DNA of 49,875 nucleotides from Asterionella formosa (Eukaryota), in assembly GCA_002256025.1 (NCBI GenBank), contig NKIB01002172.1:124001-173875 (forward strand), in the 5' to 3' direction. The position numbers and the translations under genes are program-made. Positions 1 to 49,874 of this stretch are shown here, in pieces (positions within the stretch are counted from its first letter, which is position 1; each line of letters begins with the position of its first letter). The notes under the pieces were generated by a model. The model did no database searches. It had not been told where the DNA came from and worked only from the letters and a program-made list of their open reading frames with translations.

Positions 1-417
1 ACTTCACAAGGCTTTGAATCTTCTTCGTTAACAAAAAGAATGGATTAAATAATGCATCCTCGCCCGGCAAGCTATGATGACAGCCTCATTATTAGTAAAC
101 AATGTCTATACTACTGTATATTACCGGTAATAGAGAAAGTCACGCAAAATGCAGGACCAAACTTTCCTTGTAAGTATCAAATGATGATACTTTGGGTACC
201 TGGTACCAGGTATAGCAAACGGACTTGAATGTTTGCTACTCAAGGAGTCACTACCTGGTAGTCTCGTACAAAAAATTTTCCACAACAAAAATGCAAAGCA
301 TTTAGACGAAGCATGACAACATAATATCCTTTGACATGATAAAAGCACATTTGCAATAGGAAACTTCATTCTATTTACAACGGGGGAGTTCTCATTCCTC
401 GTCTGATGTCGACACAT

Positions 418-1283
418 TTAAAGACCAGCGTTGAAACCAGAGGGATGGGCAAGAAGACTGTTGATAATGTAAGGATCGCCTCCCATCTTTTCGTGAACCA
501 TCAATGCAAGAATGCCCATCTGAGCTGCACGTCCTTGGTTGAGTTCAATAGCCCTCTTGTTAATCTTTTCTTCCGCAGTGAAACGATCCCATCCAAAGTC
601 ATGGATTTCATTGGTGAAATCTCCAGGGAATTCAGCAGTTCCCTTGACATCCTTCATGATAAAGACTTCCAAAAAACCAATAAACGCAATGATTTGCGCA
701 AGTCCGGCGGCTGGGACATCCGAAAGGCCCGCCAAACCAGACTTGATGCTGGCAAAGCTAGTTCCACTGTAGTCAATGTCACCAGCGAGGCGGAATCCAC
801 TGGAGGTGGTAATATGACCGAGCACAGCAAGCATGGCGATACGTCCGTGCTTCACTTCAACATAACGCAACCGATCGAAACGTGCTTGGTCAGCATCGTT
901 GAGGAGGCCCAACGGATCCCAGGCTTCGCCACCAAAGTTCAAAGGAACTTGCACACCAACCTAGTGTGTTGGTAGTAGTTCGAAAGCAAAGGGCAGAGGA
1001 TTGCGAGAGGTTAGGAATCAACGTTCATAGCGCAGCTTCTGATTTTCAAAGCGTTCACAATAGTCTAGTATCGGAAGTTAATTCCAGAACCAGAACAAGG
1101 TCGAAGGGCATGGATTATTTTTGCTCGTCATATTATTAAAAAACATAAAGGGAGCAAATCACAAAAAACAAAACGTACCTCCTTATCAAAAGCCCCGGAA
1201 AGAGCAGTCGTAGACTGAGCAGTCTTGGATGGAGCGAAGGCAACAGTGCCGGCAATGAGGGAAGCAAAAACGGCAGTCTTCAT
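418..1283 (-). CDS. Lhcf: Fucoxanthin-chlorophyll a/c binding light-harvesting protein (Lhcf/FCP); 2 exons: 1283-1179, 960-418
   Basis: Exon 1 encodes MKTAVFASLIAGTVAFAP (signal + AFAP plastid motif). A GT..AG intron (1178-961) joins in frame to WDPLG, FDRLRYVEVKHGRIAMLA and ELNQGRAAQMG LHC motifs. Confidence 0.96.
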
Positions 1284-1926
1284 GGTAAAATCTTCAGAAA
1301 AGAGTGCGAGAATGGCAAATCTTTTTCCAGTAGTGGACCTTCAACTAACCTTCAGATAAATTATCCCCTCCTTTTAAATTGGGCTGAATCATGTTGTCTA
1401 ATGTTTAGGTCGTGTACCGGTACGACGATAAAAAACCGGTACTGATAAAGACCACTCCTTCTGCAAGATACACCGGACTAACAATTGCCTTTATAAGCTA
1501 AAAATATATATTATCAAGGATTCACAAATTTACATAGGAATTCACTTCTCACACCATGACGTGCAAAATTTTGTCTGATATCCAAAAACTTCATCAAAAT
1601 CAGGGTTCACTCTTGCAGTTGCAGGGAAGGTGCTCAAGAAATGATTACCAAGAATTCCATATTTTTCATAGCTAGAGTTACAATTTTGACTAGTACTATC
1701 ATACTCCCGAATTTGCAATGGAGTCAAAATTGGGAGGAAAATTTAGGATTAGTTTACAATTTTTCAGTCTGAAAGGCAAAATGTGTGGTTAGTTCCCTGG
1801 CATCTTGTTTTTGCTCGATTTTGTACCACATGTCGTGAAGTGCTCCATGTGATTGATTTTGCCCAGCACCAGAGGGAGGAGTACTACCAGCCAGGTGGTA
1901 CTAGCTACCAGGTACCTGGTACCACG

Positions 1927-4090: not shown

Positions 4091-4902
4091 GTTTGCTGTT
4101 TGAATTGTTTTTCTGCGTCGTTGGTACATCGAGAGGGTAAGAGAAATTTATTGAGGAATCTACTATGACACGTAGCACAATACAAGTTTAGATGTCTGTT
4201 ATGTTTCCGGTACTCACCGCGTATTACCTGAAAAGAAAGGATGTAGTTTGTGAGCTTTTCTTAGTGCTCTTATGTAACAAGTTGTTGCAATCATCACGAC
4301 TTAAAGCCGTGAAAAAAGTCACAACAATAGTCGCTTGTGAAGACATGTAAATCAATTTGACACGATTGCCAAATATTCTAACGGGTACACTTACTATACA
4401 TTTTTGTGAACGGGCTTACCGGTACGTTGAGGGTATTGGGATTAGAGCATAAATTCTAGGTTGAAATTTGACACGATTGCCCAGATCTTGATCTAGGTCG
4501 TTAGCTTCACAGGTAACGTCCAAAACACCCTAACTCTCACTCTCACTCTCATTCCGTATTGATAAAAATATACAGGAACAGCTAAATATAGGCACACTTG
4601 AGTTGACTATAAGTTTTTAGGATGACTAGAGTAGGGTAGTGGACTGCCATTTGACACGATTGCAAAGTCTTTAAAGGTTACTCCAGCAAAGCCTACCTAG
4701 TATCACATAACTGTAAATTTCAACGAACTAAACCCTCACCAAACTCAACGCAAACGCTTGTATGCCTTCCAACGGGGTGCATGCTTTCTTAAGTTCATGA
4801 ACAAATAGAGGAAAGATTCGCTTAACGTAATTTAGTTGAAATGGAGAGTAGTTATATTCAATGTATTCAAGTAGAGACTATTATGCATTTACCTCTTCAC
4901 AT

Positions 4903-6831: not shown

Positions 6832-7992
6832 TATTTTCAAGAATGGTTGTCAATGGAATGTAGTAGTCTACATTAGATGGCATGAATCTAAGCAGTGCAT
6901 TTATCAGTGAACCAAAATATTAAAATTTTCTTTTGCTGAACTACTGGTAATTCCACAAGCAAGTAGCCAAAATGACGTGGTTGTACATACATCGGAGATG
7001 GCAACCACCGGTAAAAATATGATTGTTAGTGGCCGCTCTTGCAAATTAAAAAATGAGCGAGCCAGTGGAAACAGTGAATATATGCACCAAGGTGGTTTCT
7101 TCTTGCTTCTTATTTGTACCAGGTAAATAAAAATGTACTGGTGATTATATCATTTCCATTACCAGTACCTGGTACCTGGTACCATATGCTACAAAACATG
7201 ATCTGTGGCTGGGAGGGAAACCATTGCCAGGTACAAGAATACAAAAGAACATACCGGTATGTACAGGATGATAAATATTGCATTTTTAATTTAATGACAA
7301 CACGCTGGGATGAACATTCCGAACTCAAGCATATCTACGCAGGTAGCTAACGTAGCCAGCCATGCTCACAACGCTGCTTTTCGAGCAGAGTTTAGAGTTA
7401 GGGCCAACCCAGCTATTTCTAAAAAACTACGTACGGCATACTGGAGTACTTTCCCTTATAGTAACGTCATTAATACGACTCAGTTAGGAACCGGTAGTTT
7501 ACGGAGCCACCTACAACACGCCGATCGGTCTGAGCTAGACGCACTCGCTTGCCCAAACAATTCGATTATAGCTAAACCCTTCAACACTGATTAGTTTTGA
7601 ATACATAGCGATGGCCGGCTTGCTCGACTTTTTATCGTAAGTTGTACCGGTATTCCAACACTCGACCAAAGTCACTGGTATGGTTCGTCGCAAGGCCGCC
7701 CAAAGATCAGCCTTCCAGCCATGTGAGAGCCGACGATAAAGGGGGATCAATATCTGCCTTTGCTTGCACAAAATGCATCTACAGTATTATTATCGTCCGC
7801 ATCAAAGGGAGCGATATAATAGTCTACCGGTATCTTTGTAACCATATACTTTGTGAGACTACCGGTATTAGGTCTACTAAATACCCGCAGGCTGTATTAC
7901 CGGTGCACAGATTCTTGATTTTTGTTTCAGCGCCTTGTTGAGAGTCAAGTGGTCTGATCCAAATCCCACTCCAGCTGTTGCATTTATACGAC

Positions 7993-10900
7993 ATGAGTGC
8001 CGCCTCCACATCCGACAATGCCACCCGCGTTTGGATTCAATCATCAGCCCTAGAAGCGATTCGGAATCCCAAGATTCCACGTTTTAGTCGGAACAACAGT
8101 CAACGAAGCAGCACGAACTCAACTGTGTCGGATTCGGAAAGCGAAAATCTGGACATGGGCCGACAAGCGGCATATGGATGGGTGCGGGGCGACTTGCTGT
8201 CCAACACGTCAGAGGGGATTGCCGTGGCGGTGGAAGGACAGTCCTACACTTTACCCAATGCCGCCATGATCAACAATATTGTAGTGCTGGACAATGACTT
8301 TGCTCTAGACAAGGACAACAAGTCGATCATTCCGGACGATTTGATCACTCTCACGCATTTGCACGAACCAGCAGTTGTGTTTTGCTTGCAACAGCGATAC
8401 ATGGACAATTTTATTTACACCAATACTGGACAAGTGCTGCTAGCATTGAATCCATTTGCATCGATTCGGGGACTTTATGGAGAGGCGATGATGAGGATTT
8501 ACAGTGACAACAGCCTATCGAACGCGTTGCCTCCTCATGTGTACCAAATCGCAGATGCCAGTTTTCGGAGCATGATGCGAGTGTTGGAGCAAAATATGGG
8601 ATGCTCTCAAGATCCAACCACTTCGAGTCCCAATCAATCCATTTTGGTATCGGGTGAATCGGGAGCTGGGAAAACAGTTACAACCAAATATGTCATGAAA
8701 TATTTGGCGGCCTTGAGTTCCAGAAGTGCAGCGGCGACACCGACCAAGCGTGCTTTTCAACGGGTGACAGATGCGCGGCAAAAAAGTCCTTCATCGAGAA
8801 ATCCTAGTCCGCCCAAGAATTTTGCCAGACCATCCCCCTCGGATTTACCGTCGGCGATTCATTCCAACTCGATTGAATCCCAAGTCCTTCAGAGTAACCC
8901 CATTTTGGAATCATTCGGCAATGCACGGACCGTCCGCAATGACAACAGTTCTAGGTTTGGAAAGTTTATTGAAATCCAATTCACTAAATCAGGACAACTC
9001 GTGGGTGCCACTATTGACGTATATTTACTAGAAAAGGTTCGACTCCTCTCACAGGCGGAAGGAGAACGAAACTACCACATTTATTACGAAATCCTATCTG
9101 GTGGCATGTCAGTGATCGAGTTGAGTCAGCTGTATTTGGCGCCCACCGCGACACCCGAGGACTTTAAAATGACGCATTCTGGGACGTATGATAGAAGGGA
9201 TGGAGTGACAGATAAAGAAACATACAAGGAGCTAAAGGCCGCCATGAACAGTATGAAATTCACGCTGAAAGAACAAATGAATATCTTTGCTGCAGCGGCT
9301 GCGTTACTCCATGGGAGTAATCTAGAATTCAATGCATTTGAGGATGGTCACAGTCAATTGGATATGGAAAATGACCATTTGGAACCAGTGTGTGGGTTAC
9401 TTGGTGTTACCCCGGAGAATCTGAATGAGGCATTGTGTACCTTTTCGATTCAAGCGGGTCGAGGGGAAGCATTGCGGCGTAGTCAAAGCAAACAAAAGGC
9501 AGAGAAGGGTCTTGAAGCATTGATTAAAGCGACATATGGGGCCCTTTTTACGTATTTGGTGACGCGTATAAATCAGTCCATTGCCTTCAAGACCTCCGAT
9601 GAAGAATCTTCCCTCCTTGAGGCGCCAGCAGCCACAATTGGTGTTCTGGACATTTTTGGCTTTGAATCTTTCACGACGAACTCGTTTGAACAATTGTGCA
9701 TCAACTACTGCAATGAGGCACTTCAGCAACAATTTAATGCGTTTTTGCTGAAGAATGAACAGGAAGAATATAACCGTGAAGGAATTGAATGGTCATTTAT
9801 TGAATTTCCAGAAAATCAGGACGTTTTGGATTTAATTGACAAGCGTGGTGCTGGCATTTTGAACATTCTAGATGATCAATGTCGGGCCCCAGGCACGTCG
9901 GACAAGTCCTTTGCAAGCGATATGTACAATAAGTGCAATGGTCATGTACGATTTCAAGCGAATCGCAAGCAGGTGGCGGCCTTGCAGTTCGAGGTTCATC
10001 ACTACGCAGGACCAGTCGAGTATACAACTCTTGGCTTTGTGGAAAAGAATCGAGATGAGTTACCAAAGGAGGCAACCGAATTGTTGCGGTCAAGTACCAA
10101 TGCGTTTATCCAACACTTATCCGAGATTTTGACTGGGCCAACCTCAGTCATTGCGAATGGTAATGCTTTAGCGCCGATTCCGTTTCGGCGTTCCGACTCG
10201 TCTGTGGTCGTTGGTGCGACGGTGGGAGGTCAATTTCGGCGCCAATTGAAGGATTTGCGATGCAAAATTGACCTGACTTCACCGCATTATGTGCGATGTT
10301 TGAAACCAAACGATCTTTTGGTGCCGGATCACTTTGATCCAGTCATTGTTTCTGAACAGCTCAAGTGCGGTGGTATTTTGGAGGCAGTGAGAGTCAGTCG
10401 AGCAGGCTTCACTCAGCATTATCCCCATGCCGATTTTGTTCGTCGATATCGGTGCTTGTCAGTTGACAGATTGAAAAGTAGATCCGCTCTAGTTAATAAA
10501 AGCCGGGCAAGCTGGAATGGTGACGGGCCTAGTTGGTCTGGGGCTTCGCCGTCCCCAATGTCATCGCCAAGGGCGAAATGGTCTCCACGGAATAGAGCCT
10601 CTCCATTTAAGAAAGATCTTGGTAGCAATGCTTTGACTCCACAAGTCATGGATGTTGATAACAAGGCTGTTTGCTTGGATTTATTAAAGGTAATATGTAA
10701 GAAGATTCAATCGTTTGAAGCAGACTACGGGAAGGAAAATATTCCCAACAAGACGCTACAAAAGGATGTACCACCTATAGTCAAAGCCAAGGCCTATGAA
10801 TATAAAGTGTCCACCCCTCCTCCAATCTGGTCCAAGGCAAGGACAAGTTCGTCACCTGCACCGACTGGGTTGCCTCCAACTCCCAAGGCTGCACAGATCA

Positions 10901-11448: not shown

Positions 11449-12053
11449 AGGTTTAGATGCTTATTTTACAACATTCTATACTACCGCAACATTCTATACT
11501 ACCGGTATTGATAGGACATTTAGAAGCATGTTCAACTATCAATGGTGTTTTGTCGCTTCACAAGAAGCCGATGCTCACCCGAGAAGCATTTTACCACCCT
11601 TTACCAATAATGCGTTGAGCATTCTACCTGTGTCTATTTATAGTCTCAACCCGGTTCGATTCGGCGTAATTAATGTTAAGTTCGACCATTTAACCCAAAT
11701 TGTTTGATCGGGGATAATGCCAAGTAGGTCCGACCGGTTTAGTCCACCCTGGCTGATCATTATCGCAGCCACCATGTCTATCACTCCACCCAATTTAAGG
11801 AGTTATTCGAAAGCACGTGACAACTAAAACATCAATCAACTACCGGTATGTAACATGAATCACAGCAAATGAACAAGAAGCAACAACAACTAGATGGTCA
11901 CTTATTGCTACTGTCTATTTTTATTAAGTCCACATAAAGGTTTCTCTTTTGCGCTGTGCTTGTTACTATAACTGTGACATGCATTCTAAAGATAAAACGT
12001 CGTCATAACCATTCCGCGTTACCAATCAACCGACCATCCATCTATCCAACATT

Positions 12054-13217: not shown

Positions 13218-13924
13218 TGTTTTTGTAGTTGTGACAGTATTTACAGGCGTCACTAATAACTGCCTAACCCTGGAGTACTTATTTGAATAAAGTGGAAGTA
13301 GTGTTTGTTGTGCCTTTTCAACGGTACTCCGAGTACGAGGTAATGGTGTACAAGGCTCCGGCCTGCCAGTACCTGCCTGGTACAGCTGTGTTCAGCTGCA
13401 GCACCGTGGTTGTCTGGTAAAGTACTGGGTATTGACACGATTGAGATTTTCGAAATTATAGGCAGGGAGGAGCAGCCAACGTGTGAAAGACAAGTTTTGT
13501 TCTTGGTTGCTCATCACGAGCTGTGTACGACCAAATTAGGCGCGAATAGTGCGCAAAGAAGGAAGCACAGTGGACGATAGCCGAGCCGGTGTTTCTCCTT
13601 CCTTCCCCTGTTGTCATGGATTCGTCCTCGGACAGACAATCCGTACGACAGCAAGAAGTTGAAGTCGAATCATACATGTCATACCTACCGTTACTATGCT
13701 CCCAGGTCCCAGGTACCGTACTATGGTACCTGGTACCTGGTACGACCAGCTCGTACCATACGACTGTTCACGAGAAGTGACATTCTGCCACTTCTTGTGC
13801 TTTGCCACTTTCCTGTGCATTTCGTAACCAACCAGTATTTGTCCTCATCATCGTCGGGGGATCAAAGGTACTATCACACTCGTTCTTGTCATCTATTGGA
13901 ATGCCACTTACGATTTATGCGACA

Positions 13925-15460: not shown

Positions 15461-17895
15461 CCAGTTAAAAACTGTAAGCTACCGCTATGGTGACTTTTGA
15501 ACTGTAAACCACCGCTTAACAGAGTGAATGCACAGTTTGAACTTAGTTTGAAAGATATGCTATTTATTGTCACAAACAAGTTGTTGAGATTCATATAGCA
15601 AGTAAATATGTATGTACTTTTTTTGTTGCATTGTGTACATTGTTGATTAGATATTATCGCCCAAAGGTTGCTATTGATACGAAATTGTGGAAATTTTTTA
15701 ACATTAACTCTATTGAGCCAGCGTCACCTTTCATATACGTATTAAGGTATGGAATATTCTTCAGATAGAAAACAAGTTTAGCATCCCAAAATAGTTATTT
15801 AATATGGCTTTGACATCATTATTCTTTCGCTCATGCACCTTAAAAAAGTGATAAATTCACATTTGGAAAACATCAAATTGGAATTCCTGACACGCCCGAA
15901 TAATAGTACAAAATTGAAAAGGCATATACAACAATCACCCACAATACTAATCATCATGACATTAAAAGCACCTAAAAAGCAAGGAAATGCCTTGCCTAAA
16001 AAAATTGCCTTCTGAAGGGCTTGACAGCAGTCAGATTTGTCTTAACAATGTGATTAGGGAGCTAGAAGCTACTAAAAAGGCTAGTAAAAATGGTGGAAAA
16101 ATGCCTTGTGGTGCTATTTTTGATTTTCCCTTGGATATCTGTCAACCAAGTGAAAAATGAAAACGAAGTGCTAAACCTAGAAGTTAAGTCTACTACTATG
16201 ACGTACAAGGACCAGTCTGCGATATGGAAGAGAAACAATTGCCTGGATATTGCTGTGCTTTGGAAAACAACTCTACTTTCACTGCAGAGCTTCTGGTTGG
16301 AATGCTAAAGCACATGGACAACTCTGGCATATTTCCTCGAAACAATGGGCCCCCACCCTTCCTAATACATGATGGTCACAGGTCTCGATTTGACATTTTT
16401 TCCTCAAATGTTTACAACCCAGCTCACAATTGCACAGTCTGTATTGCTGGTGTTTCTTATGGTACAAGCTACTGGTAGGTTGGAGACAGTAGTGAGCAAA
16501 GCGGTTATTTCAAAATGAACATCTCAAAAGCAAAACGCGAATTCCTTAAAAGTAGATCACAGGCAAGAACTTACAATTAACAAAGTTGACATTGTTGGAC
16601 TGGTGGTGAATATGGCATCGGGAAATTCCTTTGCAAATATTGCGACAAAAGGAAAGTGTTTTGTTTCATGGTTCACCCTAAACTATAATGTCTTGCTGCA
16701 CCCTGAGATTCAATTGACTCAACCACAACAGAACATCATTGCGCACACAGAGACTACTGCTGCCCTCCCTCCTGATGAGTTGAACCTTCATACTGGCTTT
16801 GCTGGAACAAATGTTGGAAGAATTAACGAGTTTTGCAAACATGAGGATGTGTGAACCAGGAGGCCCAAGCTAGAAAGAGAAAGGAGACAGCAGATGCCCA
16901 CATCGAAGGACACACGAAAATGATAAACAGTAGTAGGACTACTGCTGGCCTCTGCACAAACATTTGCCCTTGGACCAAATATTCTTGCTGCTGCATTAGA
17001 ATGGAAGCGAAATTTCGACATTGCTATTAGTACAAAAGAAAACAAAAAGGCAAAAAGAATTCCATACTCTTCGAGAAAAAAATTACATTGAAGGGACAAA
17101 CAAAACAAAACAAAACAAAAGAAGAATTGTCAGTGTCAGAACTGAAATTGATTGTGCGTTTTTACAAAGAATCAGGTGATTTGCCTGTTCCACAAACTAA
17201 TTACAAGATTCGATGACATCAATCACCATTTTGACCACCACCAGCTGCCATTATCTCTCTATGCACCTCCTCCTGCTGTGATTGTTGTTGTTGCTGCTGC
17301 TTTGTCTGCTGCACATCCTCCTGTTGCAGTTTCTGCTACTGGTCCTACTAACGATCCACCAATCTGTGATGAAGTTTGAGACTCTGCGAGTAATTGAATG
17401 AGAAGCTCGTGATTTATGTAATTCATCAGAAGATTTCTCTGACAATGATGCTGCCCTGCAAAATTGTATAACGTAAAGTACTAAGAAAAAGAATTCACAT
17501 AGTATAAACGGAGTAAAAGTAAACACAGTTTTGGGGGGGGGGGGGGGGAGTTTTTTTTATTTAGGCATAATATATTTTTTTTTTTTTAACCCCCCGCCCC
17601 CCCCCCCCCCCTCCCCCCCCCCCCCCCCCCCCGCCCCCCCCCCCCCCAATATTTTCATATGCAGATAAAATATTATGTACTGTAAGCCACCGCTCTGCGG
17701 CAATCATAGTGAGTTGGGAAATTTTTTATCTTCATGGCTCAATACACAGAATCAAAACTGATTGCTTAAAAGTATAGCAGAGAGAATCTTCTAACATATA
17801 CTTTATGCTTGCATAAAGTTTTGATCGTTGTATTTAATAAATACTTTTAGTCGGAAGATAGAGTAAAATAGCAGTGGCTTACAGTTTTAAACTGG
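15461..17895 (+). mobile_element. Decayed pogo/Tc1-mariner-type DNA transposon with terminal inverted repeats
   Basis: Left TIR CCAGTTAAAAACTGTAAGCTACCGCTAT (15461-15488, preceded by TA) matches the reverse complement of 17868-17895 at about 25/28. Subterminal CTGTAA(A/G)CCACCGCT copies near 15503 and 17681. Frameshifted DDE_1-like fragments (PFLIHDGHRSRF, GVSYGTSYW*VGDSSEQ) at 16224-16560. Confidence 0.8.
17532..17647. repeat. Poly-G, poly-T and poly-C low-complexity tract
   Basis: A long G run, T runs, then about 55 nt of nearly pure C. Confidence 0.9.
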
Positions 17896-20380: not shown

Positions 20381-20759
20381 TACGACGGTGGAGCGAGCGT
20401 CCTTGCTGAATTTGCGAGTAACGCGAACGTCGGTTTTCAGATGAGGCAGTAGTCCCGACACCGCTAGCTTGAAGTTTGCGGTTCGTCTGTGAAAAAATGT
20501 TGCAGCATACCTATGAATGATGAAGTCATTTAATGGTGAACGTCAACAGTGGTACCTGGTACCTGGTAGTACCAGGTACCAGGTATGTTGGAAGATACAT
20601 ATGTCCAATACGTAGGTATGTGCCAGTACTTCAAGATATGGATTTATGACAGACAGCATTCTACTACCTGGTACCAGCAGTATGCTGACCCAACAAGGAA
20701 TGCAATAAATTTATATGGCTGGGTGCATGATCGAAGAACATACCGGTATACTGGAAGCT

Positions 20760-23035: not shown

Positions 23036-24298
23036 TTACTATATGTACTCTGAGCATGATGAGCCATAAATGAAAATTATTTGAAGGGGCTAAAAATTAC
23101 TTAGAGTACTTCCCTTTTGTGTTTGACAAAAAGTACTATGATGACAGTAAGTAAGAGGTGACAGGTATGGTGAAAGGCTGCGTCAAGAAAGCGATTGTGC
23201 TTGCTTGAAGACATCATGCAAATACTAGGTACCTGGTACCACAGCAGGAAGCATCCCAGGTAATTTCACTACCGGTATCTTTCCCTTGTGAACAAGCATC
23301 ACATAGTATCTATCTGGTAGCAATACCGGTAATCAATTCTATAGTTTTGTTGTTAACACTTTTTTTCAGAGCCACTGGTATTGACTTGCAAGTGGACCAT
23401 TGGTCCAGGGGTGATAGATATATTTGTTTAAATTTTTTTGTCACAGGCATCCAGCTGTCCTACTAATCTAGCAGTTGCAAGCCATTGCTGGTACAAAGCT
23501 ATATGATTATATGAATTGTTAATTTATGCACAGGGCTGTACGAAGTGTTGTTGAGGAATGAAATAGTTGATATTCTTAGTTGTACTAAAGGGAAAATTTG
23601 TCTAGTTGGGGAGATTGGTAAAAAGTGGAGATGCATTGCTTGAGGTGGAAGATATTAGAGAGAGTCAGACAAAACATTTTTGTCAGTGTATTCACTCGAA
23701 TAGTGGCTAGAGTTTATGCTTCACGCTGAATTTAGGTCAGAAACATTTTGATGCATAACACGCAGCATATACATGCTAAGCGGCTTGTATTGGATATTTT
23801 TGTTGATCTGGTCATCATGATGATAAGGTTAAGTGCTATGGTCTGACATACTACCGGTAGTCACTTTGACCAAATTGCGGCTTTTTTGTGAAGGTTTTTC
23901 CACCCTGGACAATGGCTGTAAAATACATATTCCTTATTCGTAGCTAGCACATACCATCAGAGTTACCTCAATCATCAAAAAAAATTCTTTGACCATGTGA
24001 TATATTTCTAGATAAATCATTCACAACATCACTGATACCATCACATGGCCAAATCTGTCAAAAAAGGCTCATTGGACGACGATTTTGCCACAATCCACCA
24101 TTTCTTTTCTCCTTGTCCCTTAGCGTTGCCTATTTTGAGAAATGCGCAGATGCTTTCGTCGTGATTTGTTCTCAGCGCTTGTTTATATTTTGCTCACTAC
24201 ATAAGATCTAACGGTTCTACTCAGCACGCGGTATATGCTAAAAAGATATTGATCAAGCTACATTTTTTAAATATTATCATATTTTTGGTTTCTTATCC

Positions 24299-24386
24299 GC
24301 AAGTTGCGGTAATTTTGTTCAACTAAGGATTTAGCTTTTTTAAACCTATGTTAAATTGTTTACTTAAGCAAAATGACCGCATCTGG
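24299..24386 (-). mobile_element. ~90-bp mini-MITE, reverse-orientation copy
   Basis: Reverse complement aligns to 33884-33972 (GCGGTCATTTTGCTTAA...AAAGCTAAATC.TTAGTT...CCGCAACTTGC). Confidence 0.75.
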
Positions 24387-26181
24387 TTTATGTACCTGCA
24401 AGCAAAATAGTTTATTTCGGTTCATCTTTTCCTAATTTCATTCCAAGAAGTAAGGATTGTTGGGCTTGTATGCCCATGGTGGATCTTGTTTCTACTTCCT
24501 AAGAGCGTCTGGACGACTCTGCTATCGAATCTGATATACTAAATATGAATTCTCCCCTTTCCAAAGCAAAAGCAAAGGTAAATTAAAGGCAACTCCAGAC
24601 ATGGTGGTTGCCAATACAGAAGAAGTAGTCCATGACTTGTCAACAAGATGTCCGAAAATGTTGGAAGTGTCTGGAAAATTGATTTATCCCATTTATCCAG
24701 TAAGGAGTTGGAATTATTGAACAAGATATGGTTGCCAGTTTGGATGTAGTTCATGACTACTTGCCAACTATTTCCGAAACTCTTGGAATCACTGGGAAAG
24801 CAATTGAACAGGTCGAAAAGACAGGAGCTGATTTTTCCAGTAAGGATAAATCACTATTGAAATTATTGAATTTTTTTGATGAAGGAATTCATAAATATTT
24901 ACGCGAAACAGCAACGAGAAATGAAGAAACACATCAATTAATTTTATCGAAAGAATCGGTTAAGGGGAAAGGTAGCTGCCGCTGCTTCGGGATATGGCAT
25001 TTATAGTGTTACATCTTCTTTTTTGTGGAAAGCATGTCCTGCTGCCCATTCTGCGTGAATCGCCAACTTTTAACCGTTGTGCACTTAGAAACACTCATGT
25101 GCAAGTATGGTATTTTTTCGGTACGTATACAAAACTTGGCGCAGAACCATATGTGTGCGCGACACTCCCCAAAAAGTCACAGAAAGTGGTGCAGGTTGTT
25201 GTATAGGATCCTTCATAGAATCATTTCTTGAATGATTACCGGTAGTCAGTCTAGGTGACCATGGTAGTGCTCCTTTCATAGCGGTGACATAAGAGGCACA
25301 GTTACTGTACTCTGAGCATTATGTCAGTCCCAGTATACTTCCATAGTGTAAGTCTTACCGGTAAAATTCGACGGTATGTACAGGCACCAAAAATACGTGC
25401 TGGTGTACACCAGGGTTATGATAATTGGAAGTACATTTGTATTCCTGTTAAGTCTTGAATATTTTATCTAATCATCCATACTTGATGGTTATTAAATGTT
25501 CCTTTGAAATAGGTTATAGACATACAGAGATGTCATATGTCATATAGTATACATTAAAAAAAGAGGAAATGATGAGATATTATTAAGAAATTGATAATAC
25601 TTTCTAGTATTCCACACAAACTGATGAAGGAACAATGGGTATCGATAGCCTCCTACCGGTATCAAACCAAAAGGTGGGAAGAGGTAAGTTATATAATTGT
25701 TTCATTTCTCAACTGTGGCTACCAAAGGGCTTATGATTGGGGCTCAAACCTTTGACCGTCTGAAAACGGAAGCAAGCAGAACTATAAAATAGTATCGCTG
25801 TTCAATTGCGCTGCTAACATGATTCAAAGTTTCTACAGTTCTCCAATAGAAAGCAAGGGAAAAATGACCCTAAGTATGACGAGGTAAGAAACAGAACTTG
25901 ATATGTTCTTGCACAATGCTGGCGAAGGTTTGGAGTGTCTGTGTGCATTAATTAGGATTTCGACATTAATATTTTCTTTCCCTTCCTCCATAAATGCAGA
26001 CGTGAGAGTTAACAACAATACCATGATGTCACCCATCAATCAACAGTGAGACCATAGGTAAGTTACTATATGCTCACTTACTGCTCATTATATCGATCGA
26101 AACTCGAAGTTAAATGGACTTTTAATGTCATCGGTTTGTTGTACATGTGTGACTGGCGGAGATGCTTTAATCGTTTCAATA

Positions 26182-32759: not shown

Positions 32760-33081
32760 GGATCGAATTTTCCCGAGGAATTAGTAATTGTGAGATTTAT
32801 ATCGTAGACAATATAGATGTAGATTCACTCATCCTGACGAAACTCGACGTCGTTAGATGGGAAATGCACAGTCTCGTTACTAGTACTGTTGTGAGCGATG
32901 TGAGAAACAAAATGCAAAGGAATGGCCGGTAATAGGCTTTCGTAATAAACAAAGGGGCACCTATGTAATGTTATGTTCGCCTTGATCAATCATGCATGGT
33001 TCATGTCCATCTCACCCATTTACACACGGTACTGGAATGAATAGCTGTGGTGTAAATCCATACCATCGTGTTTTGTTTCAT

Positions 33082-33554: not shown

Positions 33555-33883
33555 GGCAGAAGGAATGGGAAAGAAGAAAGTATATTCGAGAAAATGGGAA
33601 TGATGCTGGGGATCACGGAGATTATGACGACAGAGTGCTCGACGATCTGATTGTTTCTGTTCGTCGAGAGATGCGACGTTTTGATGACCAAGCTGCAAGC
33701 TACGACTGCGGCGGTCGAGATGCAAAAGTCAGAACGTGGCCACGTTAATGTAATTTTTACCCTGGCATTCTATGTACCGGCACCGTCACATACTACCGGT
33801 AGTTATAAGTACTTCTGGATATGTACATAAAAACCATTCATGTATATTCCTACATAAGCAAGGAATATTGTTTATATTCCTCT

Positions 33884-33972
33884 GCAAGTTGCGGTCATTT
33901 TGCTTAAATAGACAATTTTATCTAGGATAAAGAAAGCTAAATCTTTAGTTCTGAAATACATCCGCAACTTGC
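33884..33972 (+). mobile_element. ~90-bp mini-MITE
   Basis: Perfect 11-bp inverted ends GCAAGTTGCGG / CCGCAACTTGC; three further copies in the window. Confidence 0.8.
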
Positions 33973-34734
33973 CTGGCATGCATTAGATCATCTATATCAT
34001 ATATCGGGAGTATGCCGGTATACGAGTGTTGTAGGATAATACCCTTGACATGAATGATTTATTTACGGACAAATGAGCACGGTATCTGGTCCGACTTGGT
34101 AACCAGGTATCATGCCACCAAGGACTGTAAACGGGAGGGATATTCTAAGAATCACTGTTCGGGAGAAAATGATGTCATCACAAGAAATGGAGTCAGACGT
34201 GCGACTGCAATGATAAACCAGTACCAGGTACCTGGTACCAAGAACGACCCGCTGATGCACCGATATGGGTACCGGTACTCTAGTACATACAATAAGTACC
34301 AACCAGGTAACAGCGACCATTCGGACTGTGACTCATCATAAATACAGTGCGTACTACCGTTTAAATGTATGCTACCGACGGTGCGTGACAAGCAAAAGAG
34401 ATCTGTCATTACTGGTACCCCTAACCTTAATACTAGAAGTACATACGTATGTCATTTTTAGTGGGCACTATTCGTACATGAGTATGCACGCATGAGTTGA
34501 CATCCAGATGCATTTTTGTATATCTATACACAAATACCGGGTGTTCAGGACTTGTCTTCACATTTGTACGATGTACAATGGCTGGCTGGCTGGCTAATCG
34601 AAAGCAGCGGGCTTCCCTATAAATTTGCCGCTGTACACCAAACATATTTAGCAATGTGTAAAATGTGAACGAACCAGGGGTACCTGGTACCTGGTACAGT
34701 GTCCTTAGTAGCTGATGCTGGGTACCCCGAGTAA

Positions 34735-34830
34735 CAGCAATTTGCGGTCATTTTGCTTAAATAAACAATTTAATATGGGATAAAGACAGCTAAACCTTTA
34801 GTTTCAGCACAATCACCGCACAGCTGCTGG
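34735..34830 (+). mobile_element. ~90-bp mini-MITE
   Basis: Aligns to 33884-33972; ends GCTGG followed by TA. Confidence 0.75.
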
Positions 34831-35277
34831 TAGAGTCAAGGTACGAGGTTACCTCGGACTAGTAACAACTACGTATGTACGTCTGGTTTTGTTACCGCAG
34901 GTATCATGTCCTCTCTTGCTGCCTGGCTGCCCATTCAATCTACCGTACTTGCTTCAACACCACCACAGGGGTTGATTCGAATCAGATACTTGCTATCGTA
35001 CCTGGTACACGGAGTACATAAACTGACTGAGCAAGATCTGACCATGTTTTATGTACCTGTAGAGATAATGGCGACATGCGTACATCAAGTAGCGCTTTTT
35101 TATCATGTCAATATTTTACGTACATCAAGTATTATCCTTATTTCATCAGACTCGGCTGATAGTCAACGGTGTTGCTTCTTTACATTACTGGAGTTATTAA
35201 ATCCCTTTCATACTGTTCGTTGCAATTAGAGTCCCTCCCTCCATTTCACTGCAGAGAGAAACTCAAACGAAATAACC

Positions 35278-37966: not shown

Positions 37967-38222
37967 GGGAATGGCTTACCGGTAGCGGTTAAGAATGTAG
38001 TCGTTATAAATGAAGTGGTTGGTTTTATTGCTGCTCCTTTTTTGAGAAGCAACTATTGTAGGGGCTCAATTCCCACATTCCTTACCATGCTAACTTCCTA
38101 AATGGTCGGAGTTCCCCTCCTCTAACACTTTGGCTAAGATGACCAGCTTTCATAAAATTGGGTTGGGGAATCACCAACAGGTACATTAATGAAACTAGGA
38201 AAGCAAAAGTCTTGCCAACAGG
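37967..38222 (+). mobile_element. tRNA-derived SINE-like element, family A copy 3 (old, degraded)
   Basis: GGGAATGGCTTA head, TTTTTTGAGAAGCAA, TCCCACA.TCCTTACCAT, GGTCGGAGTT, GGCTAAGA, GGTTGGGGA.TCACC and AAACTAGG.AAGCA are collinear with copies 1 and 2. No TSD found; 3' end uncertain. Confidence 0.75.
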
Positions 38223-38544
38223 CCATGCTCTGAAAAGCCATGTGCAACTAGGTAGAAGGTATTAGAAATTACATTATAAGCAATTTGAATTTACTGTCCA
38301 TCATGGATCATGAGAGCACACATTTCATTATCGAGTACATATCCGTTCAAGGAGTGACAAACTCAATGCCTAAAAGGATTCCTACCGGTAGATAGTAGAA
38401 AAAAATGTGACTATTCTGATAGTACAGGTCTGAGGTACAATAATGCTTGTTTGGCACAACAAGGAAGTTGCAACCCTCAAATAACTTGCCTCTCGACTGT
38501 TGAAAATGTTTCACATAGAGTGTATATTATTTCAATTAGCTAGC

Positions 38545-39465: not shown

Positions 39466-40189
39466 TTGATGGCGCTGTTGGGAATGCGTGGTGGTGGTCC
39501 GTGTCAAGAGTGAACAGCAAAATGCAGCGGATGCAGGCCGGAAGTAAAGCGGAGAAGGCAATAATAAGAGAATAGCGGCGATGACAATATTGCGTGGTGA
39601 GGAAATGATGGCGAATTTGATGAACCAAGATCTGGATCGTTTAGCAGCGAAAGGACTGTTCCTGGAAGATAACTGGTGATGCAATGACGATGTGTTTTGT
39701 AATGATGTGGTGCTGTAGGCTCAGGTACGAAGTGTTGGCCTGGCACATCACCTCGTCTTCACTCATCTTGAGGAGGAGGCTAAATCTGTTCGTCAAAATG
39801 ATATATACCAGTATAAAGACATATATGAATATATATTATACATCATCATGTGGAATTATTGCTGAAGTACGGGTACCTGGTATCATACCGGTAGTTAGAG
39901 AGTTGCTTACGGTAAGAAATTGGTGCGTGTGCGTTTGTTTGTTGTGTGGAAGAAGCAATGCCATATGCACCGGCATCATCAGACAGAGACAAAATAGACG
40001 AATGAACGCCACCAGTCAGTACTGGTACGTGTGAAGTAATATTAGAAAAATTAGTCTAAAAATATAATAGGTACAGTATGATCATTATGTACCGGTAAAA
40101 GAAAACACAATACAGACAGTTGTTGACAAATCACGAGGAAAAATCTACGTGTCACTGGAAACAGAGAAAAACGATTACCATTCCTTGAA

Positions 40190-41950
40190 TACTCCCCCTT
40201 CACCAGTAAGTTGCTAACCAAGGTATGATCAAAGAAAGAGAGTTGTTCACAAGTGTCACAAGATTACCCAGGTTTGCTATAGTACCAATCTTAAAGTGGG
40301 AGGACAAAGGTTCCCATTACATACTACTAGGTGTTAAGAGTTCTAGGAGTCACTTGCTTCTAGTCGCTCTGGTAGTAGTATTCCTTGTCTTTCCAGTGCT
40401 GCTTTCCCCATATGCGGAATGTCATAGTCGTTGTCGCTCTGCCTGTTAATCGCCTCCTCAAGAATTCCCTGTAAAGTAAGAAATGAACAATTCAAACTCG
40501 TCGGTTCAAACAATTCATACACCGCCATAGCTGCCTCCGCCAGCTCAGCCATATCATGATTAGCCTTCTCAACTGAATCCCACTGTCCACTTTGAAGCAC
40601 CAGAAAGAAGCTAAGATCATTTATGTTCATGTCAGGTGAGTTTGCTGGTTGCGCTGTCAACTTGATACCCCATTCATCCACAGTTAACTACTGCACTTAA
40701 AAAGGTAACAAATTTAGTACTTTGCTCCAAAATGAGTGCTTACATTGTCATGATGTATGTATACTGTCTTCTTGCCATCCCCGCCATTGACTACTGGCTA
40801 TTTCTCCCAAATCTCCGATATCACATTATTAATCACCATATCTGCATATTAGCTCTGTTTCGTTACGGCAACATTTGTTGTTATTATTGTTCCAGCTTGT
40901 CTGTGTATCTAATTCCTAAGCGCCGGAGTTTTCTGAATGAAGGTCCATTTACCTATCTTTCCATCAAACATACACACTCATACCTTGGATGAGCAATAAC
41001 TGAAAGAAACACTACCTTCTCTAAATGATCCTTGTGTTTGGTCCTGGGAACGGGGCCCCTCTCTCCCTCAGTCAAGTAGAATAGCTGTTTAAACCCCTGA
41101 TCATAAAACCATTTTTCATTGACATGAACTTGATCGCAAAAACCGTCGTAGAACCCAAAATAATTACTACCTGGGTCGAAAGCCACTTCGAGTGATGGGT
41201 GAAGTTGTTCAGGGTGATTCAACTGTAGTAGATGGTTAACGCAATTAAAAACCGACTAGTTCTACATTCTTCTGTTAACTTTGTATGGACAGCATTCATA
41301 TGTGCTCTAATGATGTCCGGGGTCATTGGCGATGTAGTATACTGTTGATTTTGGAACAAGGTTGAGTGCTGATGCAAGCTTGCAATATGTGGCACATTTG
41401 TGAAATAATGGCATTTTCATTATAGCAGATGATATAATGCATCTCATAATGATTACATTTCTGCGGCTGGCCAGCCATGTTTTATTTTGTGGGAAAGGAA
41501 GAAAGCAAAATTGTCACTATCACCTAAATAGTAATGGTATGTGCTCGATTCCATATACGTTGTACATTACTCCTATTCACATCTAACCTATGTGACAAGA
41601 ACACAACGGTTCCAGAAATAATTGAGAATCATTTGACGCTCGTCTAACTGTAAAATCCCTTCTCATATGCTTGTCAAGATTGAGTTGTGGCAAAAAATGG
41701 GGGGTCAGGCATCTGCATTTTGCTCGAGATGGGCAAAAGTGAAAATCGAAAAAGCCGAAAAAGGTTTTTTGAAAACATAGCTGCCAATTATAAATTTACT
41801 ATATTTATATTATGCATAGATCTGTATCTTTTAGGATGTCACACATTACTATGGCAAGCAATTGAAATTGAGAACATCGTATGAGTCAAAATGGCCCCAG
41901 ATAAATGTTAACATTTGACACATTTTGTTTTTGACCAGAGGGAGCGAGTA
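40190..41950 (-). mobile_element. Decayed mariner-like element of the plant/oomycete DD39D type
   Basis: Fragments VHVNEKWFY...KHKDHLEKVVFLSVIAHPRY (41222-40953) and QPANSPDMNINDLSFF...NDYDIPHMGKAALER (40681-40343). CTCCCTC-type terminus (GAGGGAG) near 41938-41944. Boundaries approximate. Confidence 0.75.
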
Positions 41951-41961
41951 CTAGGTACTTT

Positions 41962-42054
41962 GCAAGTTATGTTCATTTTGCTTAAATAGACAATTTAATT
42001 GGGGATTAAAGAAAGCTAAATCTTTAATTCAGCAAAATTACCGCAGATTGCTGG
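41962..42054 (+). mobile_element. ~90-bp mini-MITE
   Basis: Aligns to 33884-33972; ends CCGCAGATTGCTGG followed by TA. Confidence 0.75.
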
Positions 42055-45925: not shown

Positions 45926-46126
45926 TACTGTAGTCTAGAAGCGATGTGCCAACGCTTTCACGCTGGAGCGACTATTTTGCTATTTCTGAACGTAACTACT
46001 AATAATTTGTTCAATTTTGATCAAGAACAATATATAAAAGGGTTTGCAAACTTGTGCCATTCCTAGCGCTTTTCGCTATTGATATATTGCTTGATTACTG
46101 AACTTTCACTATTTTTCACAGCCCTT

Positions 46127-47776
46127 TCAGTGATTCCGAGTCTTGATTTTCTTCCATCGATTGCTCACTCGTCCTTTTAAAACTTTCCATCCTTGCTTGG
46201 CCATTTGTCGTAAGCTTGCTCTCTCCTCCTCTAAACTATGCACGTAATCCTCAATCTCCTCAATTTCCATTTTTGCAACCTTCAACTCCAATCCCATGTT
46301 TCGACACGACTCTTCCTTCGCCGTCAATTGATTCGTCGCGTCGACTTTTAGTTGTTGCATTTTCGTCTCATGTACACTCAACATCTCCTTGATTTTGCTC
46401 ATGTGAGTCTTCTGAAGTGCTTCCATGGCTAAAGTCAACTCATGCCCTTCTTTGATACGCCTATCTTGTTCCGCTTCTAAACGATCTTCCCAATCGTTGG
46501 CGTCTGTGGTGTATCGTTGTTTCAGGTCTTTCAGTTGCATTTCCAATGCGGAGCGCTCCTGGCGAAGGAGTTCGATTTCTTCATTCAATTTGGCTTCTTT
46601 GACCTCCTGCGCCTTCCTCAACGCAATTGCTCCTTTGTGGGCATCATATTTCACTGCTCTCAACTCACGGACAATGTCTTTGATGCGATTCTGTAACGTG
46701 ATTTCTTGTGATCTGGTTTCAAATGGAGCGAGTCTGTGAGACAGAGTGTTAAATGGAGATTAAGTGCAAAAGCAGAAGAAAAATCGTGCACGTACTTCAT
46801 CGCATCTTGAAGCTGCGCTACAAGCGCTTCTTGCTCAGCATCCTTGAGTTCGATTTCTTTCATCAGACATTCAATTGTGGTTTCTCGTCGTTCTTGCAGT
46901 TCATTGAATGCTTGTGCCTCCATAATGTCGTCGTTGACTTGTTCCAAATCAGGTTCCGGTGCATTTCTCAACCAAGCTGGTATGCAAGACCCCCTTTTGG
47001 CATCAGTAGCGATAGAGGACGCAGTCACAATCCATCCGTTTTGAGACTCCGTTTTTGCCTCCATCTCGTCGTGTACCTCATCGATATACTCAACATCTGG
47101 AGCATCTCGCAACCAAGCTGGGATGTAGCTTTTAACATGGGAATCCACTGCGTTCTCAGATTTGATGTAATTCATAGTGGTATCTATGATTTCTGGTGTA
47201 TGAGGCAAGAAATCGGACTTGATTTTCGTGTCCGTTCCTTTAGGTTCCACATCCGTTTGCCTCTCATGTTTCACTGATCGAAAGTCACGAACAAAGTCCC
47301 CGATGCGATCGGTCAACTTGATTTCTTGAGTTCTAGGGCCAGAAATAGAATAAGACGAGATACAAAAGAAATTAAGCGATTCATATTATAGAGAAAAGCT
47401 TGGCTTACCTCATGTCTTCTTCAACATTGGGCATTTCATGCACAGTCCCGTGCGCCCCATTGACTTGTTGCACATCAGAAACTGATTCATCACTCAACCA
47501 AGCCGGTATGTAAGATCTACCATTGGATTCCATGCTTAAATCTCCTTTGATAGAAGTCACAGTCACCATGCTAGACTTCGTTGACGACACTCCGTCGGCC
47601 AGAACTTGCCCTTGTTCCTCATGCACTCCGTTGATGTACGGCACATCAGGGGCATCGTTCAACCACGCTGGAATGTTTGCTTTCAAAGAGACCAATGGAC
47701 GAAGAAGCGCCGCAGGCGCCATCATGAACGCATTGCTGGATGCGAGGAAAGTAACCAACGCCAATGCCTTTCTCAT
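46127..47776 (-). CDS. Plastid-targeted protein with four IPAWL repeats and a C-terminal coiled coil; exons 47776-47409, 47332-46796, 46733-46127
   Basis: MRKALALVTFLASSNAF signal + AF motif; two GT-AG introns join three ORFs in frame; E/K/L heptad-rich C-terminus. Confidence 0.82.
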
Positions 47777-49764
47777 TGTTTCGGCCTAGAAAAAGGTAAA
47801 CGATCTTTGCTCAATATCCCAAAACAATGTTTGAAAAGGAACCACGTGATGCATTAAAAATATAATGGAACCGGGTAGTGAAGCAGAATTACTGACGACG
47901 ATGTGATGGAGAACGAAATTGATGATGACGTGAGCATGATGTGGATACTCAGACATCATAGGAAAGTACGGTAGTTAGTATATAGCGAAGCGTGAAGAAA
48001 CACGGTTTCAGCAAAGAAGAATCAACCACCACATCACATTTGGTATTGTAGTCGAGTCAGATTGACCACGTCATCGTGACATCAAGTTTTGAAGTCGTGA
48101 GAAACTTGATGGCGATCTCGAACACGTAAAGTACTTCATGCTGGCCCAGGTCGTTCGGCAGATGATTGTCCTCCTTGCTATAAGGGTACCTGGTACTGTC
48201 CTGTACGTAGTGAGTACCAGTGCCTGGTTGTATGTACCGGTACCAGGTACCTTGTACAATACATTTATGTAGGGCAGGTCTTGAAGTTGTGGCCAAACAA
48301 TTGTTACACATTGGGAGGTCTGTTCTTTCCCAAAACATATTTATGATGTACCTAAAATCCACACAGTACCGGTAAGTATGACTAAATAGAATAGTTGAAG
48401 GTAAAATGAGCTTTCACCAATCCTACCACTTTGCGTATGCTTAGATACAGTCATTGCTTGACTTCGGGGTATGCTCTATATTCAGATATGGTAAGGACCT
48501 CATTTCTGGAGAGAAACTGCAGTTATCCCTCTTGGAATCGTAACTATCCAAAAAGTAGTCAAAAAAAGGGGGCTATCAAGCTGTTTAAAAAATCTACAAG
48601 GGATAACAGTAGTTTCTCTCCAAAATTTAACTCCTGACTTTATAGGGTACATGGCTATCTTTTTTATCTTCATAAAACCCCGTAGATGTAGAGCAATCGT
48701 CCTCGAAAACGTCGACCCAATCGGCTTTTTCAACATTCACCAAAATATTGGAATCGGAATTTGTTCATGCGAAAACGTTCTTGTAGACATAGGAGTCTTG
48801 CGAAGGTATATTTTGCTGCATAGTTCACAGTCCAAAGAGACTCCAGGGTAAGTTGCCGCATCACTACAAATATTCTGATTGGTTGAATTGAATTTACTCA
48901 CCTGCTCCAGAATAGCTGAAGTATTCCGGTCTTGTAAAATCACGCCAGCCACACTTTAGAAACACGTCTGTACTGTATACTGCTGGTAGGTAAAATCAGT
49001 ACCGGGACACGAAAGGTACTAGTTTCATCCTGTCTGCCTTTCATTGTCATGAACCAAGATTACTATGTACTACCAGTATACTGCCGGCTCTCTGCTACTC
49101 TAGTAGTACTGATTTATATAAATACCGGTATATACCTTTGTGTGTGGAGTGACTACATACAGCACCATAGATTCAATATACACATATGAAAAACGAACCA
49201 TGAGCATAGATGTTTGCACACTCCTGATTTATATATGTGTTTTGGCGTTGAGTAAAATCATGTATACATTCAGCAACGTAGATATAGTATAAATGTTTCA
49301 ATATCATTTTTGTTTATTTAAAATGGAACTCTATCAATGATCTGGTGCCGATTCCTATTTACTTTAAAAATTCAAATGGACACTTGAATTATGGGAATTC
49401 GTAGCAGGAAACTCCCTGTTCCATGCCGTTTTTACAACCCTAGGGACGTATTCTCCAAACTAGCGGGGCCACAACCTTAACAGAGAAACAAAAGTTTAAA
49501 AAATGTTGCTCGGCCCAATTTTTTGTATCTCCAACATCTGGGTAGGATGTTGCTTCCCAGCAACACTCTTTTTGTAGCTCCGAAATGTGTATCTCTGTAG
49601 AAACAGCGTTAAGCAAAAATAATTTTATAAATTTTATACATGTCATGTAATTAAATTAATCAATGAAGACACCATTTTTGTCTCTAACGGCAACGATGGA
49701 AACGAATTTTGGGAGGAGGGATCTACAGCAATTCTTATATCTTCTCATGTAATTATGCTTTTCA

Positions 49765-49803: not shown

Positions 49804-49874
<71 letters not shown>

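Follow-up and report, generated by a model that had tools for sequence, protein, structure and literature searches.

TA-bounded palindromic words, their 7-bp chains and CCAG-ended transposable elements in non-coding DNA of the diatom Asterionella formosa

The DNA analysed here, a stretch of 49,875 nucleotides from Asterionella formosa (assembly GCA_002256025.1, contig NKIB01002172.1, positions 124,001 to 173,875 of the forward strand; referred to below as the window), is diatom nuclear DNA. It carries a gene for a fucoxanthin-chlorophyll-type antenna protein (FCP) on the minus strand at 418-1283, and its other encoded proteins are an MFS transporter, a myosin, an ELO elongase, NmrA-like, LRR and ELMO-domain proteins, a folate dehydrogenase/cyclohydrolase and an O-fucosyltransferase. 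Outside the genes lie a decayed inverted-repeat transposon (TE1), a family of miniature inverted-repeat transposable elements (MITE-A), a high-copy repeat (TE2) and the subject of this work, two short palindromic words, TACCGGTA and TACC(A/T)GGTA (TACCWGGTA, where W is A or T), both bounded by TA and some of them joined in chains. These words are real, lineage-specific, TA-bounded units, which at one locus take the form of a whole-unit insertion or deletion, and they have a physical link to CCAG-ended, TA-duplicating elements. DNA of the window is also present in sequencing runs labelled as algae, freshwater, lake or river metagenomes, and contigs of other runs (X1, X2, X3 and X7) were compared with it over positions 20500-40499.

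The word TACCGGTA occurs 25 times, whereas 100 dinucleotide-preserving shuffles of the window gave a mean of 0.27 and a maximum of 2, and TACCWGGTA occurs 24 times against 0.23 expected. The enrichment of TACC...GGTA is limited to spacings of 0 and 1 (25 and 26 occurrences, versus 0-9 at spacings 2-12), and at spacing 1 A or T fills the middle position in 24 of 26 cases, G or C in only 2. When all words of the form TA-N2..6-TA in the window were compared, no other came near the enrichment of these two. The commonest 7-mer pair of the window is ACCGGTA/TACCGGT, whose 56 counts place it above poly-A, and 25 of the 32 ACCGGT cores are preceded by T and followed by A. Among the inner pairs of TAC-NN-GTA, CG was counted 25 times, CA 5, TG 4, TA 1 and AT 1. 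The one-mismatch neighbours of TACCGGTA that do not involve CpG form a modest halo (17 versus 4.7 expected), the CpG-transition neighbours TACCAGTA and TACTGGTA together reach 8 (0.84 expected), the half-sites TACC and GGTA, once the words are removed, stand at only 1.3-1.5 times expectation, and TACATGTA is not enriched (1 versus 0.8 expected).

An earlier reading of the window by eye (the sequence-only reading) had put TACCGGTA at about 20 occurrences or more, which the count bears out. All 20 of its positions hold the word, two of them displaced by one base (7825, not 7824, and 23324, not 23325), and the sites at 23852, 25654, 33794, 38383 and 48235 lie beyond its list; its eight TACC(A/T)GG arrays were all found again. 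It had also seen no words in the long coding sequences. Coding DNA was masked as 18,438 nt of Pfam-supported or long open reading frames (ORFs) and 1,632 nt of transposase ORFs, together about 40% of the window, a rough mask of our own making and not a gene model, and none of the 49 words, which form 31 clusters, falls inside it (P about 1e-7 if clusters are placed uniformly). The positions of all words and chains are given in Table 1.

Table 1 Words, chains and inverted-repeat elements located in the window (a slash marks the end of an element)
Feature	Positions	Strand	Remark
TACCGGTA	122..129		
Chain TA-CCTGG-TA-CCAGG-TA	197..212		Perfect 16-bp palindrome
TACCTGGTA	252..260		
TACCGGTA	1415..1422		Upstream of the FCP start codon, 132 bp away
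Chain TA-CCAGG-TA-CCTGG-TA	1906..1921		
TACCGGTA	4417..4424		
TACCAGGTA	7117..7125		
Mixed chain TA-CCAG-TA-CCTGG-TA-CCTGG-TA	7160..7181		
TACCGGTA	7252..7259		
TACCGGTA	7645..7652		
TACCGGTA	7825..7832		
TACCGGTA	7860..7867		
TA-C-TA-CCGG-TA	11497..11507		Convergent myosin/ELO 3'/3' spacer
TACCGGTA	11841..11848		Convergent myosin/ELO 3'/3' spacer
Chain TA-CCTGG-TA-CCTGG-TA	13727..13742		
TE1	15461..17895	+	Decayed 2.4-kb inverted-repeat transposon; ends CCAGTTAAAAACTG... and ...CAGTTTTAAACTGG
Chain TA-CCTGG-TA-CCTGG-TA-G-TA-CCAGG-TA-CCAGG-TA	20553..20585		33 bp
TA-C-TA-CCTGG-TA	20662..20673		
TACCGGTA	20741..20748		
TACCTGGTA	23230..23238		
TACCGGTA	23270..23277		
TACCGGTA	23324..23331		
TA-C-TA-CCGG-TA	23849..23859		
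MITE-A copy 1	24293..24384	-	
TACCGGTA	25237..25244		
TACCGGTA	25356..25363		
TACCGGTA	25654..25661		
TA-C-TA-CCGG-TA	33791..33801		
MITE-A copy 2	33882..33975	+	Right end ...CCTGG, then CA
Chain TA-CCAGG-TA-CCTGG-TA	34222..34237		
TACCGGTA	34270..34277		
Chain TA-CCTGG-TA-CCTGG-TA	34681..34696		MITE-A copy 37 bp away
MITE-A copy 3	34733..34830	+	TA/ACAGCAA...GCTGCTGG/TA
TACCTGGTA	34999..35007		
TACCGGTA	37977..37984		
TACCGGTA	38383..38390		
TACCTGGTA and TACCGGTA	39874..39893		3 bp between them; the latter at 39886
TACCGGTA	40090..40097		
MITE-A copy 4	41959..42054	+	TA/CTTTGCAAG...TTGCTGG/TA
TACCTGGTA	48187..48195		
Mixed chain TA-CCGG-TA-CCAGG-TA	48235..48249		
TACCGGTA	48367..48374		
TACCGGTA	49123..49130		

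The words join into chains by sharing their TAs, and different words can mix in one chain, as at 7160 (CCAG, CCTGG and CCTGG) and 48235 (CCGG and CCAGG). Consecutive GTAC pairs are found 19 times at exactly 7 bp, versus 2-5 times at each other spacing that occurs between 4 and 14 bp, and the longest array, 20553-20585, is an inverted repeat with arms of two units. The two word classes behave differently in these chains. TACCGGTA stands alone or beside only a one-base TA-C-TA unit in 23 of 25 cases, the remaining two being the copy at 48235, which shares a TA with a CCAGG unit, and that at 39886, which lies 3 bp from TACCTGGTA. The flanks differ as well, since chains that contain CCWGG have GG before or CC after them at 13 of 30 edges and chains of TACCGGTA only at 1 of 48.

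Such regularity could point to an origin in tandem repetition, in which the arrays would be (GGTACCW)n tandem heptamers, or inverted ends, made up of repeats, of a foldback-type element, born and resized by slippage with no excision, and the single words would be their eroded remnants. The 7-bp spacing and the two-unit arms of the 20553-20585 array agree with this, as do the chain edges, which fray at arbitrary phase with GG before and CC(A) after. Array depth is several hundred times that of single-copy DNA, and loose ends at 34697 indicate that other copies continue as longer arrays. Contigs also differ from the window in length by +7 (X3 and X7; 33926-34575) and -7 (X3; 30480-31203), each placed only to within its interval, beside a difference of +6 (X7; 39160-40404). 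Tandem repetition leaves TACCGGTA unaccounted for, however, although this is the more frequent word; it is never in heptamer phase, lacks the GG/CC flanks and is mostly solitary. Of eight adjacent heptamer unit pairs, five have the same middle base and three differ exactly at W and are otherwise identical, and these three mixed pairs argue against pure slippage as the producer. No full element with unit-built ends was found in the window, and we consider this explanation distinctly unlikely.

The same heptamer was also met outside diatoms. Many unrelated bacterial genomes and metagenome-assembled genomes (MAGs) carry tandem (GGTACCT)n arrays, the longest with 7 or more units, and at least 105 stretches lie in genome contigs (L005-L109; e.g. 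L080 at 1543-1581, L071 at 10001-10039, and L095). Their hosts include Acidimicrobiia, Gemmatimonadaceae, a complete Cellulomonas chromosome and Bacteroidota, and other GTAC heptamers often adjoin them. These arrays speak for tandem repetition. In four bacterial MAGs with array matches, TACCGGTA was not enriched (33-65 occurrences each, versus 61-102 for a reversed control), and a search of viral contigs with the array pattern and a MITE-A 17-mer returned unrelated contigs with no further words.

Two AT-rich contigs binned in a Chitinophagales MAG, L118 (G001:C77, 3,022 bp) and L085 (484 bp), have a GC content of 0.38-0.41 and homologous segments in common. They hold dense GTAC-rich blocks (60 GTAC versus 10 expected), which include ACTACCGGTAGT and GGTACCTGGTACC and are placed between tandem AAAGCACCGTGCTTTATTTTTT repeats. 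In L118, TAC-NN-GTA occurs 21 times against 0.9 expected, with inner pairs TT 5, CG 4, TC 4, CA 2 and GA 2. The two contigs have the look of contaminants from a different organism that carries words of this type.

The position of the words relative to genes bears on another explanation, namely that they are dimeric transcription-factor sites (e.g. for MYB-related proteins) selected in promoters and without any transposon origin. TACCGGTA would then be the diatom counterpart of the Phytophthora motif M94, to which it is identical letter for letter, GGTACC-W-GGTACC would be either a second type of site or an array of the homotypic kind, and protein would be expected to bind at the predicted sites TACCGGTA and GGTACCWGGTACC. 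Measured from the first in-frame ATG and not from transcription starts, a word lies within 1 kb upstream in 11 of 13 genes and the nearest one at 132-288 bp in 8 of the 13, with none of 43 distances below 100 bp, and words cluster in divergent promoters (e.g. 8 words in 6850-7941, the MFS/myosin promoters). These positions are in keeping with promoter sites, as are the sharpness of the motif, the absence of words from masked coding DNA and their absence from the interior of TE1 and from 25,655-30,600, about 5 kb of repeats (the 25.7-30.6 kb block). The same spread is close to that of three random sites per spacer, and the density of clusters, 1.9/kb in spacers holding a 5' end versus 0.8/kb in 3'-only spacers, is not a significant difference given the few spacers.

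Precedent for such sites exists in oomycetes. The high-confidence palindromic promoter motifs that Roy et al. (2013; PMC3597505) report for Phytophthora infestans include M93, TACATGTA, with 4,150 occurrences in promoters, and M94, TACCGGTA; neither is one of the six motifs tested there with reporters, and the part of that paper available to us makes no mention of transposons. Seidl et al. (2012; PMC3520976) located TACATGTA in the upstream regions of 12,070 Phytophthora genes and rejected an origin as Tc1 footprints because the motif is conserved and abundant. Yeast one-hybrid and gel-shift assays showed that the MYB-related protein PsMyb37 binds TACATGTA, and effector expression fell when its gene was knocked out (PMC11134190, 2024). 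As far as these sources go, binding has been demonstrated for TACATGTA only and in an oomycete only, and it is TACATGTA that is not enriched in the window.

Several features of the words fit poorly with promoter sites. Two of them, at 11497 and 11841, sit in a spacer where two genes converge; overlapping units 7 bp apart with common TAs could not all be filled by dimers; and a dimer that accepts a spacing of 0 or 1, the extra base being A or T only, would be unusual. The near-normal frequency of the half-sites also counts here. Conservation was assessed at the loci of MFS orthologues in four other diatoms, taken from one metagenome scan with the MFS protein, which returned no allele of the window's own locus; these 33.8 kb (46-51% protein identity, and perhaps too distant to count) hold 0 words, where the density of the window would give about 33. 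The sequence-only reading had named transcription-factor sites as the alternative to its own proposal, an alternative that gains from the Phytophthora motifs and the binding of a MYB-related factor to TACATGTA and loses by the empty orthologous loci. We regard it as a serious contender, if an unlikely one.

What promoter sites would not lead one to expect is the association with mobile elements. MITE-A is present as four copies of about 95 bp with inverted ends of the form ...CTGG/TA, and copies 3 and 4 have TA on both sides. TE1 reads TA/CCAG...CTGG/TG, and 21 of its 24 terminal bases match, this being a single copy. CCAG is the sole part that the inverted ends of MITE-A and TE1 have in common. 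The inverted-repeat element at 15461/17895 and the ...CTGG ends before TA at 34830 and 42054, both picked out in the sequence-only reading, are real, and because CCAG-ended, TA-flanked elements exist in the window, its proposal does not fail for want of an element with CC or CCA ends that targets TA.

Read depth indicates that one of these families is abundant. In X1, the bins 33840-34506 and 34507-35173, which hold MITE-A copies, have depths of 72,663 and 213,257, about 80-230 times the 700-1,200 or so of single-copy bins, a figure that is not that of MITE-A alone because the same bins hold arrays. Words and MITE-A are also joined directly. Joints between array and MITE-A sequence were found at 20568/20569-33882, 24326-34679 and 34239-34741 in contigs of 1 to 4 runs, and such junctions of arrays with element ends have no role if the words are regulatory sites. 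The letters of other copies ahead of 33884 end in ...TACCA (14 records, with an agreement of only 0.47). Within the window, a search for complete TA/CC...GG/TA elements returned array-to-array matches only, a looser search for CCWG...CWGG elements returned TE1 only, and a search of repeat pairs for a copy with and a copy without a word found no word inside any pair.

At one locus the words vary between the window and contigs of other runs. Two contigs at single-copy level, one from X1 with depth 957 and one from X3 with depth 190, skip 20552-20582, which turns ...CAGTGG-(31 bp)-TA-TGTTGG into ...CAGTGG-TA-TGTTGG. The array at 20553-20585 as a whole is thus a variant, bounded by TA, that is either present or absent. 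Another X1 contig, of depth 1,054, has AGC in place of 20551-20584; it could represent a third allele of the 20550-20585 junction or a paralogue.

Given these ties to CCAG-ended elements, the mixed chains, the one variable locus, the lack of words at the distant diatom loci and an inner pair that changes with lineage inside a constant TA-C...G-TA frame, we favour the reading that the words are scars from the outermost bases of TA-duplicating cut-and-paste transposons ending in CCAG...CTGG (more generally CCWG), to which we give not quite an even chance of being right. Excision would leave each flank with its TA and a four-base 3' overhang, 5'-CCAG, and two such overhangs could pair in two registers with two good base pairs in each. 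In a four-base overlap the outer C:G pairs would hold and the two inner C.A mismatches would be repaired separately, giving TA-CCGG-TA if repair favoured G:C and TA-CCAG-TA, TA-CTGG-TA or TA-CTAG-TA otherwise. In a three-base overlap a central A.A mismatch, with one base filled in on each side, would give TA-CC(A/T)GG-TA. Both words, and the restriction of the middle base to A or T, would be explained because one CCAG overhang has two registers. Mismatch repair is biased towards G:C, and the staggers of related elements are 2 nt in Tc1/Tc3, 3 nt in mariner and 4 nt in Minos. If the mismatches were repaired independently and C kept with p = 0.83, CCGG, CCAG, CTGG and CTAG would be predicted at 24.3:4.9:4.9:1.0, and 25:5:4:1 were observed. 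Each new TA at the end of a scar would permit re-insertion and so let a chain grow, two tandem units could lengthen further by slippage in 7-bp steps, and some scars may since have been adopted as protein-binding sites, which is compatible with a transposon origin.

The sequence-only reading had likewise taken the words for excision footprints. That view holds as far as the CC(A)G-ended, TA-duplicating elements, the chains with shared TAs, the variant at one locus and the lack of words at the distant diatom loci are concerned, and falls short where the flanks of the two word classes differ and in that excision went unobserved. Its overhangs of two or three bases would yield CCGG, but CCA overhangs cannot pair into CCWGG.

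A number of points weigh against an origin as scars. Shared events at shared targets should give both word classes matching flanks, and the differing flanks are left unexplained by every reading considered here. CpG decay of TACCGGTA would yield the same four counts as biased repair, and the same excess of TACCAGTA and TACTGGTA. The four-base stagger is a hypothetical property of MITE-A and TE1, and the assignment of TE1 to the pogo type is a lead from Atlas features. About one word per kb implies many more excisions than there are extant element copies; judged by array depth, the genome may hold long arrays by the hundred, for which serial re-insertion alone would hardly be enough; and the stretch 25,655-30,600 and the interior of TE1 are without words. 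A slippage deletion fits the 20552-20582 variant equally well because its ends share the 4-nt GGTA, and the joint was flagged 'between: not known' in the comparison. Among the variants listed for the compared runs, which cover 12 of 80 indels and 15 of 133 joints, there is no excision event and no pair of a filled and a scarred site. Finally, the identical 8-mer is a predicted Phytophthora promoter motif whose sister palindrome binds a MYB-related factor.

TE1 itself is decayed, its transposase remnant including an ORF at 16188-16478. Among the matches listed in an Atlas feature search, this ORF scored 0.95 for DDE_1 (pogo-type) clusters, and 26 of its 30 matches belong to the DDE_1 cluster set, in which just 20-22% of members carry PF03184. 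A full-length relative of the transposase, P0268 (723 aa), has D / DGH / P..TS..Q..D motifs by eye. Pfam returned no family for the ORF or for its relatives P0268 and P0270, and a PDB sequence search with the TE1 transposase returned nothing; with both searches empty and Atlas features as the evidence, pogo membership of TE1 stays a lead. TE1 also contains a run of about 65 C with few G or T at 17590-17654, with a G run ahead of it at 17534-17550. A second ORF, at 29400-29807 on the minus strand, has an N.DET..NFD motif resembling the first catalytic region of pogo-type transposases, and a Pfam search assigned it no family. It sits in a repeat block at 27.9-30.5 kb that has neither TACCGGTA nor TACCWGGTA.

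TE2 (20586-23170) is a repeat that reaches, in summed X1 contig depth, well over 100-fold the single-copy level. It encodes a transposase-like protein in four frame-broken pieces on the plus strand (ORFs 20967-21530, 21767-22033, 22056-22517 and 22583-22921), of a family with the pattern GQDE / FDHSxGH / ELAGEGIEYxW and relatives of 400-1000 aa. The family gave 562 matches, among them many from freshwater metagenomes and from Fragilaria crotonensis and Nitzschia inconspicua. Neither a Pfam family nor, by PDB sequence search, a solved structure was found for these ORFs and their relatives, and scans of genome contigs and viral contigs with the transposase gave no match. TE2 was considered as a donor of the words, spanning 20572-23236 with ends made of two CCWGGTA units, and was rejected: its two ends agree over no more than about 15 terminal bases, the contig lacking the array still continues into the same right-hand sequence, and the high-depth part seems to stop near 23175. 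A test of 20540-20800 against 23170-23400 for a direct-repeat relation was negative.

Among the other repeats of the window, three copies of one, at 2118-2467, 27439-27796 and 38016-38088, contain a tRNA-like GGTTCGA(C/T)TCC box, which makes the repeat probably a tRNA-derived short interspersed nuclear element (SINE). Many run contigs diverge within 27510-27572, inside the second of these copies. A long trinucleotide run of the (TTG)n / (CAA)n type at 49781-49875 closes the window.

Whichever reading holds, the words with their 7-bp chains give the genome a signature that is both strong and simple, and our literature searches found no paper describing either for diatoms; a preprint on diatom transposable elements (10.1101/2025.10.24.684338) is silent on mariner, MITEs, footprints and excision. 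If the words are scars, cut-and-paste transposition would be a major writer of short palindromes in this genome, with a density of about one per kb, the words would be a countable record of past excisions, and a class of promoter palindromes that are regarded in oomycete work as transcription-factor sites and nothing else would gain a mechanical origin. If they are regulatory sites, TACCGGTA would be one of the commonest promoter elements yet met in a diatom and would offer a ready way into diatom transcriptional control. The two are not mutually exclusive. It is conceivable, though we think it improbable, that the abundant TA-C..G-TA palindromes of stramenopile promoters are made from scars that TA-duplicating transposons left on excision, that the two inner bases record the tips of the active family (CC/GG here, CA/TG in Phytophthora), and that MYB-related factors adopted some of the scars. 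Transposition would then write regulatory palindromes genome-wide and seed 7-bp minisatellites.

Among known systems, the footprints of Tc1/mariner elements resemble the words in having TA on both sides and inner letters that are the outermost bases of the element. They differ in that four retained bases and two pairing registers would be needed here, and in that scars here would outnumber elements by orders of magnitude and rank among the commonest 8-mers of the window. Chains and arrays are, to our knowledge, not a known feature of footprints, and literature searches found no report of footprints so far outnumbering elements. The pogo-type element Passer leaves a footprint of 0-4 bp. Sleeping Beauty leaves canonical footprints of cag or ctg between TAs, and the central A/T ambiguity described for it, which arises from an overhang mismatch (PMC5224488), parallels the origin proposed here for CC(A/T)GG. 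In Caenorhabditis elegans, taCATGta has been cited as a Tc1 footprint (PMC3520976).

Stowaway-type MITEs are miniature elements that duplicate TA and are mobilised by transposases of the Tc1/mariner type. MITE-A is like them in structure, with a length of about 95 bp, inverted ends and, in two of its four copies, a TA at either side, and its read depth is very high. The Phytophthora motifs M93 (also motif-1 or AM-20) and M94 are, like TACCGGTA, 8-bp TA-C..G-TA palindromes abundant upstream of stramenopile genes; the available text on them describes no 9-mer words or 7-bp chains. In Phytophthora, an oomycete, the AT-centred word dominates, whereas in the diatom window only the CG-centred one is enriched. 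Across lineages the TA-C...G-TA frame is constant and the inner pair changes, being CG here, AT in Phytophthora M93 and TT, TC, CG, GA or CA in L118.

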